64,000 bases of DNA from NCBI GenBank assembly GCA_963751275.1, contig CAVVTZ010000011.1:128001-192000 (forward strand), read 5' to 3'. The position numbers are program-made. Source of the DNA: an uncultured Gemmatimonadaceae bacterium. GTDB lineage: Bacteria > Gemmatimonadota > Gemmatimonadetes > Gemmatimonadales > Gemmatimonadaceae. This document shows, one piece after another, positions 18,601 through 21,600 of the stretch. Each line of letters begins with the position of its first letter. Position 1 is the stretch's first letter.

Positions 18601-21600
18601 TCAGTACCATACGCTCAGTTGCCAGACGCGCCGTTCCAGTTCTTAGCAGCGCCTGAGCACGCCCACCACGACCCCTTGGATCGTGACGTCATTCTCGTGG
18701 ACGTAGATGGGACTCATGGTCTCGTTGGCCGGCTGCAGACGGATCCGCCCGTCGCGCTCGCGGTAGAACTTCTTGACCGTCGCGGCGCTGTTGTCGATGA
18801 GGGCGATCACGGTCTCGCCGTTGTCGGCGGTCCGGCGCTCGTTGATCACGACGAAGTCGCCGTCGCGGATCTGCTCGTCGATCATGGAATTCCCGCGCAC
18901 GCGCAGCACGTAGTGATTGCCCGCGCGTCCGATGAACGTTTCCGGCACGCACAGCGTCTCGCCACTCGAGATCGCCTCGATCGGCGTGCCGGCGGCGACG
19001 GAACCGAGCAGGGGCAGCTCGACCGCCCGCGGGAACACATCCGACGGCAGGATCTCGATCGCCCGGCTCTCGTTGTAGGAGCGCTTGATGTAGCCCTTCC
19101 GCTCCAGATTGCTGAGATGCTCGTGAACCGTGGCCAGCGAGTTATAGTTGAACTGACGCGCGATCTCCTCGAAACTCGGAGCGTACCCGTTCTGCTCCGT
19201 GTACGCCGAGAGGTAGTCGAGGATCTCCCGCTGCCGTTTGGTGAGCGCCATGCGTCAAGTCCCGTAGAGGTGATAGCTTAACGAGCAAGTGGTGCCCGAA
19301 GTAACGCCGAATTGGACGATAACCGAATAATTCCCGAAGTGCAAGCTCCGAATCGCACGTGGACCCCGCCCGGCGGCACGCTGGGCACGATCCTGGCCGA
19401 GGCCCGTGAACGGGTCCGGTCCCTTCCGAGTGTGCGCCGGTCCGAGCTCCGGCGCATCGCCGCCCTTCCGAGGGATGCCGGCATCCCCTCCTTCGCCGCG
19501 GCCCTCCGCGCCGGCCCCATGATCGCCGTGATCGCCGAGGTGAAGCGCCGGTCGCCGTCCAAGGGGGAGATCAACGCGGCGCTCTCGGCGAGCGCGCAGG
19601 CCGTGGCCTACGCGGCCGGGGGCGCCGCCGCGATCTCCGTCCTCACCGAGCCGCAGCATTTCGGCGGATCGCTCACCGATCTCGCCGACGCCCGCGCCGC
19701 GGTGTCCATCCCGCTCTTGCGAAAGGACTTCGTGCTGGACCGTTCGCAACTCTGGGAGGCGCGGGCGGCGGGTGCCTCGGGAGTATTGCTGATCGCGCGT
19801 GCGCTCGAGCCCGCGTTGCTCGACGAGCTCGCGGCGGAGGCGATCGCGATGGGGCTGGAGCCGCTCGTGGAGGTGCGCTCTGAGGGGGAGCTGGCGCGGG
19901 CGCTGGCCACGGAGGCGCCCGTGCTCGGCGTGAACCAGCGCGACCTGGAGACCCTGGTGGTCGATCCGGCGGTCGCGGAACGGCTTCTGCCGCTCGTGCC
20001 GCGCGCGCGCGTGGCGGTGAGCGAGAGCGGCGTACGCGACCGGGCGGGCGTCGAGCGGGCGGCGGCGAGTGGCGCGGATGCGGTGCTCGTCGGATCAGCG
20101 CTCTCGGCGGCCGCGGATCCGTCGGCGGCCGTCCGCGCCCTCACGGGAGTGCCACGAGGCGCGCCGCGGAGCGGAGACCATGGCCGCTGAGCTGAAGTTC
20201 TGCGGGCTCACGCGCGCGACCGACGCGCACGCCGCGGCGATGTGCGGCGCGCGCTATGTGGGCGTGATCTTCGCGGGCGGCCCGCGCCACTTGGAGCCGG
20301 AAGCAGCCGCGCTGGTGCTGGATGGCGCGGGCGCCGGCGTGCAGCGCGTGGGCGTGTTCCGCGACGCGGATGTGTCCGCGATCACCAGAGCCGTTCGCGC
20401 CGCGCGGCTGGATGTCGTGCAGCTGCACGGCGACCCGACGGCGCGCGAGGTGCGCAAGGTCCGCGAGGCGACCGGCGCGCGGGTGTGGGCGGTGCTCCGC
20501 GTGAGCGGCGCGGCGCCGGCCGATCGCCTGAGCGAGCTCGACGGCGAGGCCAATGCGATCGTCTTCGATACGCTGGTGCCGGGCCGGATCGGCGGCACGG
20601 GACGCTCCTTCGACTGGAGCGCCTCCGCGGACGGCGGCCGGCCGCACCGCTCGCGCCTCGTCGTGGCCGGCGGGCTGAATCCGGAGAACGTGGCGCAGGC
20701 GCTCGCGGCGCTCGCGCCGGACATCGTCGACGTCTCCTCGGGCGTGGAATCGCGGCCGGGGATCAAGGATCACGAGCGCATGCGCGTCTTCGCGGACGCG
20801 GTGCGCGGTGCGAGAGGGGACTGAATGGCCACGGAGAGTACCGACCGCTTCGGCGCCTATGGCGGCCGCTATGTGCCCGAGACCCTCGTGCCCGCGCTCG
20901 ACGCGCTCGAGGCCGCGTACGCCGCGGCGCAGCGCGATCCGGCCTTCCAGCGGGAGCTCGACCGATTGCTCAAGAGCTATGTCGGTCGTCCATCTCCGCT
21001 GACCGACGCGCCGCGTTTTTCGGCGGCGGTGGGGGCGCGAGTCTTCCTCAAGCGAGAGGACTTGAACCACACCGGCGCGCACAAGATCAACAACACGGTG
21101 GGGCAAGCGTTGCTGGCGCGGCGGATGGGGAAGCGGCGGATCATCGCCGAGACGGGCGCGGGACAGCACGGCGTGGCGACGGCGACGATCTGCGCACGAT
21201 TCGGATTGACGTGCGTCGTGTACATGGGAGAGGAGGACATGCGGCGCCAGGCGCTGAATGTCTTCCGGATGAAGCTGATGGGGGCGCAGGTGGTGCCGGT
21301 GACGTCGGGCACGCGCACGTTGAAGGACGCGACGAGCGAGGCGATCCGCGACTGGGTCACCAACGTGACGGACAGTCACTACATCATCGGCTCCGTGGTG
21401 GGGCCGGCGCCCTACCCGCGCATGGTGCGGGATTTCCAGTCGGTGATCGGACGGGAGGCGCGCACGCAGATGATCGAAGAGGCGGGACGGCTTCCGGCGA
21501 CGGTGGTCGCATGCGTGGGCGGCGGCTCGAACGCGATGGGGATCTTCCACGCGTTCGTGGCCGACCGGGAGGTGGAGCTGGTCGGGGTCGAGGCCGCGGG

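Follow-up and report, generated by a model that had tools for sequence, protein, structure and literature searches.

The window analysed here, that is the whole stretch of DNA under study, comprises 64,000 nt from an uncultured Gemmatimonadaceae bacterium (GCA_963751275.1, contig CAVVTZ010000011.1, positions 128,001 to 192,000). Within its trp gene cluster (window 17561-22009), lexA is encoded antisense between trpD and trpC, and two exact copies of the direct repeat TTCGG-N6-TTCGG lie ahead of the lexA coding region. The features of the locus, in window coordinates, are:

17561..18592, plus strand: trpD, convergent with lexA
18643..19251, minus strand: lexA, 202 aa (TIGR00498, 205.8 bits against a cut-off of 111)
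19296..19311, minus strand: operator box 2, exact TTCGG-N6-TTCGG over the expected transcription start; predicted binding site
19316..19321, minus strand: putative -10 element TATCGT (TAnnnT), assigned by comparison
19323..19338, minus strand: operator box 1, exact TTCGG-N6-TTCGG occupying the spacer between -35 and -10 of the lexA promoter; predicted binding site
19339..19344, minus strand: putative -35 element TTGCAC (class consensus TTGC(G/A)(C/T)), assigned by comparison
19339..20190, plus strand: trpC, divergent from lexA, with a probable start codon; context, outside the operator
19348..19352, minus strand: additional single TTCGG half-site, shortly upstream of the -35 element, 9 bases from box 1 and out of register

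A tmRNA gene was also found in the window (147-502, RF00023).

The initial annotation had placed two copies of the repeat at the lexA promoter, one in the spacer and one just downstream, and both are indeed exact and occupy these positions. Box 1 covers 16 of the 17 bases that separate TTGCAC (19344-19339) from TATCGT (19321-19316), and box 2 begins 4 bases past TATCGT. The mean number of exact repeats expected by chance in the window is 0.14, and two or more copies occurred in 2 of 100 shuffles. According to a position matrix trained on 183 sites, all taken from other genomes, box 2 is the weaker match (score 15.9 versus 26.2 for box 1), as it carries A at spacer position 5. A sigma-70 consensus scan of positions 18500-19700 called no promoter, TTGCAC included, and the lexA promoter proposed here comes from comparison among loci. 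When read on the plus strand, the bases of the -35 element open with the probable GTG start of trpC. Due to this overlap, LexA binding or SOS transcription could affect read-through of the trp genes.

In a search of 121 genomes of the phylum (two of them flagged as unpublished and used in this tally only), a lexA match was obtained in 117, including all 104 genomes of the class Gemmatimonadetes; the four genomes with no match belong to sister classes, whose recA is unboxed anyway. Promoters were examined over 400 bp upstream of lexA for 73 of the 104 class genomes, which represent nine families, and the exact box was present in every one of them. Two or more exact boxes were found in 67 of these 73 promoters and in 26 of 29 within the family. 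The earlier claim of two boxes in 30 of 30 family promoters thus stands as far as an exact box precedes every lexA, but not for the exact pair. The spacing between paired boxes is variable (21-37 bp). A TTG hexamer lies 5-7 bases ahead of a box in 70 of the 73 class promoters, 67 of these 70 have TA 16-17 bases beyond the -35 element, and the -10 hexamer opened by this TA has T as its sixth base, which played no part in the selection, in all 67, a regularity that supports the reading of the region upstream of lexA as a promoter. In all conserved sites the half-sites are oriented head to tail, unlike the inverted half-sites of palindromic LexA boxes, and in all 73 class genomes a pair of half-sites with a spacer of 6 bp, and of no other length, overlaps the lexA promoter. 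Among the matches listed for Gemmatimonadetes-like metagenome loci, 74 of 77 had the exact box before lexA. The antisense position of lexA between trpD and trpC recurs throughout most of the order: trpD is present in 29 of the 30 loci that extend far enough to include it, and trpC beside lexA in 52 of the 73 class loci, a count in which most loci outside the family covered only 400 bp.

Counted over the whole genome, the exact box was not over-represented: its 15 copies did not stand out from the numbers of TTCGG repeats at other spacer lengths (6, 8, 14, 6, 6 and 8 for N0, 3, 9, 12, 15 and 18). The case for an operator consequently rests on position and conservation. The exact box occurs in 10 of 2754 upstream windows of this genome, and the ten best matches to the matrix all lie outside called genes and include the sites before the mutagenesis cassette, lexA and recA. 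The coding calls behind this result cover 78% of the genome and come from a rough gene finder that misses frameshifted genes. In the assembly, recA (C8:98158-99206), dnaE2 (C7:361340-365144), a gyrase-B-family gene (C9:680932-682868) and recN (C11:50237-51890) are each split over reading frames, most likely by sequencing errors. A spike of 138 at spacer 16 in the spacer scan is caused by an abundant intergenic repeat family, dispersed over the genome, whose GTTCGGG units are spaced at 21 bp; 61 core copies of it were counted, none inside called genes. This repeat is found on many contigs (e.g. C1:31131-33251 and C2:81408-91173) with no copy in the window, and copies in both orientations lie no more than a few hundred bases from one another, resembling REP elements rather than the LexA box.

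The larger set of sites also refined the motif. The initial annotation gave T at spacer position 5 in 89% of 78 sites, a figure that did not hold for the 183 sites, in which T accounts for 78% and C for 19%, nor for box 2 with its A. A pyrimidine two bases ahead of the second half-site is conserved (97%), and the equivalent base ahead of the first is not. The functional consensus is probably best written as TTCG(G>T,C)-N4-Y-N-TTCGG.

Targets other than lexA were surveyed in 30 genomes chosen across the class. Upstream of recA, the exact box was present in 13 of 30 genomes, and a box with base 5 of the half-sites left free (TTCGN-N6-TTCGN) in 27 of 30, so that even the relaxed box was absent before recA in three. 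A count of 26 of 30 recA promoters had been given initially, which is approached by the relaxed form but not by the exact one. All 30 recA sites have TTCGG as their second half, and their first half varies at base 5 (G in 13, T in 10, C in 6 and A in 1). Control windows contained no exact box either downstream (0 of 30) or far upstream (0 of 30), and spacer lengths from 2 to 11 other than 6 gave none. In the genome analysed here, the exact box reported at C8:98095 is present before recA, but the conserved recA site lies one period upstream (C8:98084-98099, TTCGT-N6-TTCGG) and shares a half-site with it. A match to the radical-SAM gene at the head of imuA-imuB-dnaE2 is present in 17 of these genomes, and in 16 the exact box precedes it; the cassette downstream was confirmed for this genome only, where both the site at C7:368798 and the identities of the radical-SAM, imuA, imuB and dnaE2 genes agree with the initial annotation. 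Before recA and the cassette, boxes occur on either strand. The same site is therefore shared by lexA and the core SOS genes, recA and the translesion polymerases, and autoregulation together with control of recA and translesion polymerases is described as the usual SOS core in PMC3323433.

Genes for excision and recombination repair, whose inclusion varies between phyla, are with rare exceptions not preceded by the site. The box was found at 1 of 29 loci of uvrA (one locus cut at its 5' end was dropped) and at 2 of 21 loci of dinB-like genes (eight weaker or second matches of 29 were dropped), and in this genome no box lies before recN, uvrB, ruvC, ssb or any of three uvrA copies. The distribution of sites points to a small, lean SOS regulon in the class, consisting of lexA, recA and the mutagenesis cassette and leaving out excision repair. 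Three strong intergenic boxes in this genome precede genes with no SOS role. One of them, a top-scoring box (26.7, at C9:162116), lies before a V-type ATP synthase operon, which has a patchy distribution (9 of 81 genomes of the family); as the exact box is present in none of eight relatives, the operon was rejected as an additional member. At C7:820768, a box-like site is located about 470 bp before a lytic transglycosylase gene and downstream of a DNA polymerase III delta-family gene. A similar box at the same distance was found in just 4 of 26 relatives, after three loci of unpublished genomes had been dropped, and the transglycosylase was likewise not accepted as a member; a riboswitch at this site was considered as well, and no Rfam match reached the gathering score. 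The third, an exact box at C3:19397, lies between a PadR-family regulator and a divergent glyoxalase/bleomycin-resistance-family gene.

The LexA protein encoded beside the boxes appears intact. Alignment to solved LexA chains places an Ala-Gly site at residues 87-88, Ser122 and Lys160 in the expected positions behind a winged-helix domain, and identifies SLATVHEHL as recognition helix, in which E44 aligns with E45 of E. coli LexA. The helix ATVHEH is found in 73 of 73 class LexA proteins. Conservation of the box at lexA, the cassette and recA, together with its fixed place inside the lexA core promoter, leads us to regard TTCGG-N6-TTCGG as very probably the LexA (SOS) operator of the class Gemmatimonadetes, as the initial annotation had proposed.

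The repeat family extends beyond the class. At lexA loci of the sister classes, TTCGC-N6-TTCGC lies behind TTGACT in 11 of 13 cases and TTCGG in none; of the two remaining loci, one has TTCGT as its first half and one is cut short. All 13 sister-class LexA proteins carry Lys at the position of residue 44. When sister-class LexA proteins were used as queries against named genomes, 80 loci were obtained, mostly from Acidobacteriota, and 77 were left after removal of three loci that duplicated sister-class genomes. A promoter-anchored site was present in 66 of these 77 Lys-type loci, with C as base 5 in 64 of the first and 60 of the second halves and G in none; the acidobacterial sample consists mostly of Vicinamibacteria and does not represent A. 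capsulatum. The sister classes and most Acidobacteriota loci share the helix ATxHKH. Before recA, boxes were found in 0 of 15 sister-class genomes and in 5 of 12 Acidobacteriota, one of them exact TTCGG (one locus cut at its 5' end was dropped). Two acidobacterial LexA proteins with the helix LNGVHKH (L124 and L144) are preceded by a different shared upstream sequence and lack the TTCGC box; this sequence is possibly a further motif.

A metagenome scan for the Glu-type helix returned at least 120 loci. Among the matches listed, 40 were not Gemmatimonadetes-like, with 43-55% identity to the references and nearly all of low GC content. An anchored site was found in 24 of the 36 of these loci with at least 45 bp upstream (among the matches listed), and in these 24 sites base 5 is G in 21 first halves, T in 12 and G in 11 second halves, and C in one of each. 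The exact TTCGG-N6-TTCGG was present in 4 of the 36, again among the matches listed. Two of seven low-GC clusters that were looked up include members named Woesebacteria, Shapirobacteria and Parcubacteria, which indicates that the main low-GC group is Patescibacteria. All four groups therefore have the same architecture, an 11-bp direct repeat with a TTCG core in the spacer of the lexA promoter, and share the recognition helix ATVH[EK]H, for which the Patescibacteria loci had been selected on ATVHEH. The LexA of Gemmatimonadetes probably forms one family with the LexA proteins of Acidobacteriota, of Patescibacteria and of the other classes of the phylum examined here. One metagenomic lexA frame (L340:584-1441) continues beyond the usual end into what looks by eye like the start of a DNA methyltransferase.

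Across these groups, base 5 of the half-site tracks residue 44 in helix 3 of LexA, Glu occurring with G and Lys with C. Glu typically contacts cytosine and Lys guanine. Since the opposite strand of the half-site starts with C in the Glu type and with G in the Lys type, the association fits these usual contacts, and residue 44 may contact base 5 of the half-site. In E. coli LexA, E45 is listed among the base-reading residues in PMC11442139, and a passage of bioRxiv 2020.07.14.201889 describes the exchange E45K as abolishing binding to the recA box. In a quick tree of 41 rows, calculated with the column in question removed and with a branch support of 0, one change accounts for the Glu and Lys states, for which reason the pairing is a testable hypothesis rather than proven co-evolution. 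An independent origin of the Glu/G pairing was sought in 401 Acidobacteriota genomes, none of which contained the Glu-type helix pattern, while the same pattern recovered the lexA of the window; a single change suffices. One Lys-type acidobacterial genome (L216) with an exact TTCGG box before recA represents a counter-example. We consider the Glu/G versus Lys/C pairing a strong lead, short of demonstrated co-evolution. The unequal tolerance of the two half-sites and the single conserved spacer pyrimidine hint at an asymmetric dimer. On balance, we lean slightly towards a model in which a LexA subfamily of Gemmatimonadota, Acidobacteriota and Patescibacteria reads a TTCG(G/C) direct repeat, the residue at the E45 position acts as a switch (Glu for TTCGG, Lys for TTCGC) whose exchange would swap the preference, and the dimer binds asymmetrically with one subunit turned round. 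We know of no structure of a symmetric LexA dimer on a direct repeat. If the model is true, the two types would provide a natural two-state pair for solving how such a dimer binds. Cultured Gemmatimonadetes and Acidobacteria, with near-identical helices and different operators, make a one-residue specificity test and a structure practical.

The repeat could instead be bound by another DNA-damage regulator that controls lexA, recA and the cassette, be it a second LexA-like paralogue or a WYL-domain factor such as those of the PafBC/DriD kind. Targets of this sort could be expected of any damage regulator, canonical LexA does not typically recognise direct repeats, and a second LexA-like gene was present in four genomes examined, but in four lineages the motif changes together with the recognition helix of LexA and the location of the boxes within the spacer and over the start site fits a repressor, so that we regard such a regulator as improbable, although no search aimed at WYL regulators was made. 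Second LexA-like matches occurred in just 5 of 121 genomes, and the four genes examined (L050, L064, L065 and L066, from genomes G104, G027, G096 and G109) have another helix, STKTVSE, and no upstream box; they form a separate clade. Because box 1 abuts the TTG hexamer in 70 of 73 lexA promoters, the repeat might also be part of a promoter class, as a determinant for a sigma factor or the polymerase, and not an operator. This is still less probable, as the -35 and -10 elements are recognisable separately from the repeat, which precedes recA and the cassette on either strand, is present in two copies of variable spacing at lexA, and occurs in its exact form in so few upstream windows of this genome. 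That the repeat serves control of the tryptophan operon, as the frequent divergent trpC might suggest, or is a chance product of GC-rich sequence, in line with genome-wide counts at background, is the least probable reading and was rejected for trp control, since boxes are retained in all 21 of the 73 lexA loci with no visible trpC and lie before recA and the cassette elsewhere, while trpD is unboxed in this genome.

To return to LexA as the binding protein, we infer binding, repression, induction, the promoter positions and the contact of residue and base from what can be read in the sequences, namely the boxes, their conservation, placement and targets, and the association of residue with base. 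A dimer of the LexA encoded beside the boxes would bind a pair of head-to-tail half-sites separated by one turn of the helix (11 bp). The lexA promoter would take up two dimers, the first between its -35 and -10 elements and the other over the start site, occupancy of box 1 blocking polymerase binding and occupancy of box 2 blocking the start site, which would result in autorepression. Single boxes would repress recA and the radical-SAM/imuA/imuB/dnaE2 cassette. After DNA damage, RecA would stimulate self-cleavage of LexA at Ala-Gly 87-88, with Ser122 and Lys160 as catalytic residues, and repression would be lifted.

Direct-repeat LexA motifs are established in other bacteria, among them GTTC-N7-GTTC in Alphaproteobacteria (PMC8565304, PMC3323433) and the motif of Balneolaeota (PMC7739468). 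PMC7739468 gives three citations for direct-repeat motifs, one of which is a 2017 Patescibacteria paper (PMID 28618189), and also cites a paper on A. capsulatum LexA (PMID 16549674) as a direct-repeat case. Validated LexA proteins listed in the supplement of PMC8565304 include those of A. capsulatum, a Parcubacteria and a Collierbacteria, and Table S2 names the 2017 Patescibacteria study as source of the sites for two of the validated proteins; a whole-file search of this supplement for "Gemmatimona" gave no hit. No published LexA box of Gemmatimonadetes, and no relevant paper containing the motif in any of six spellings, was found in the literature searched, which lacked most subscription journals, so that absence from print is not established. 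The Patescibacteria motif was reportedly described by Sanchez-Osuna, Barbe and Erill in 2017 as a direct repeat with a resemblance to Acidobacteria LexA, and the box of Acidobacterium capsulatum is said to have been given as GTTC-N7-GTTC by Mazon et al. in 2006. The supplements of Erill 2016, Mazon 2006 and Sanchez-Osuna 2017 may name Gemmatimonadetes. The assignment of the operator to Gemmatimonadetes thus appears unreported, whereas the description of the operator as new had to be given up: the same TTCGG repeat has the same placement before lexA of Patescibacteria, and its TTCGC twin occurs in the sister classes and Acidobacteriota. The initial literature searches, restricted to the name of the taxon, had not brought this to light.

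Compared with the known systems, E. coli LexA shares the repressor fold, the catalytic Ser/Lys pair, the Ala-Gly site and Glu at the same helix position with the protein described here, but binds the palindrome CTGT-N8-ACAG with another half-site and controls a much larger regulon. The Balneolaeota system has a direct-repeat architecture as well and a regulon of lexA, recA, translesion polymerases and a radical SAM protein, but its half-site sequence is unrelated. The alphaproteobacterial box is a direct repeat with an 11-bp period and a TTC core; its leading G, however, is present in only 15% and 38% of the 183 sites at the two half-sites, the trailing GG is conserved instead, and GTTC-N7-GTTC was found in just 9 of 73 class lexA promoters, for which reasons membership in this box type was rejected. 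The LexA proteins of Acidobacteriota are the nearest outside relatives found for the sister-class proteins and have the 11-bp direct repeat, TTC core and promoter placement in common with the class, but carry Lys where the class has Glu at helix position 44, with TTCGC in place of TTCGG. In Patescibacteria, TTGAC of the lexA promoters is immediately followed by TTCGG-N6-TT(C/T)G(G/T) and the LexA helix is again ATVHEH, although the repeat is looser and relaxed in its second half, whereas recA of Gemmatimonadetes relaxes the first half. The repeat is therefore a shared form of the direct-repeat LexA site reported for other bacterial groups and not a new kind. With it, an abundant class of soil and water bacteria that has hardly been studied gains a usable SOS box, which is tied to those of Patescibacteria and Acidobacteriota as one family and adds a taxon rather than a motif; for specialists, the Glu/G versus Lys/C pairing is the more useful part.
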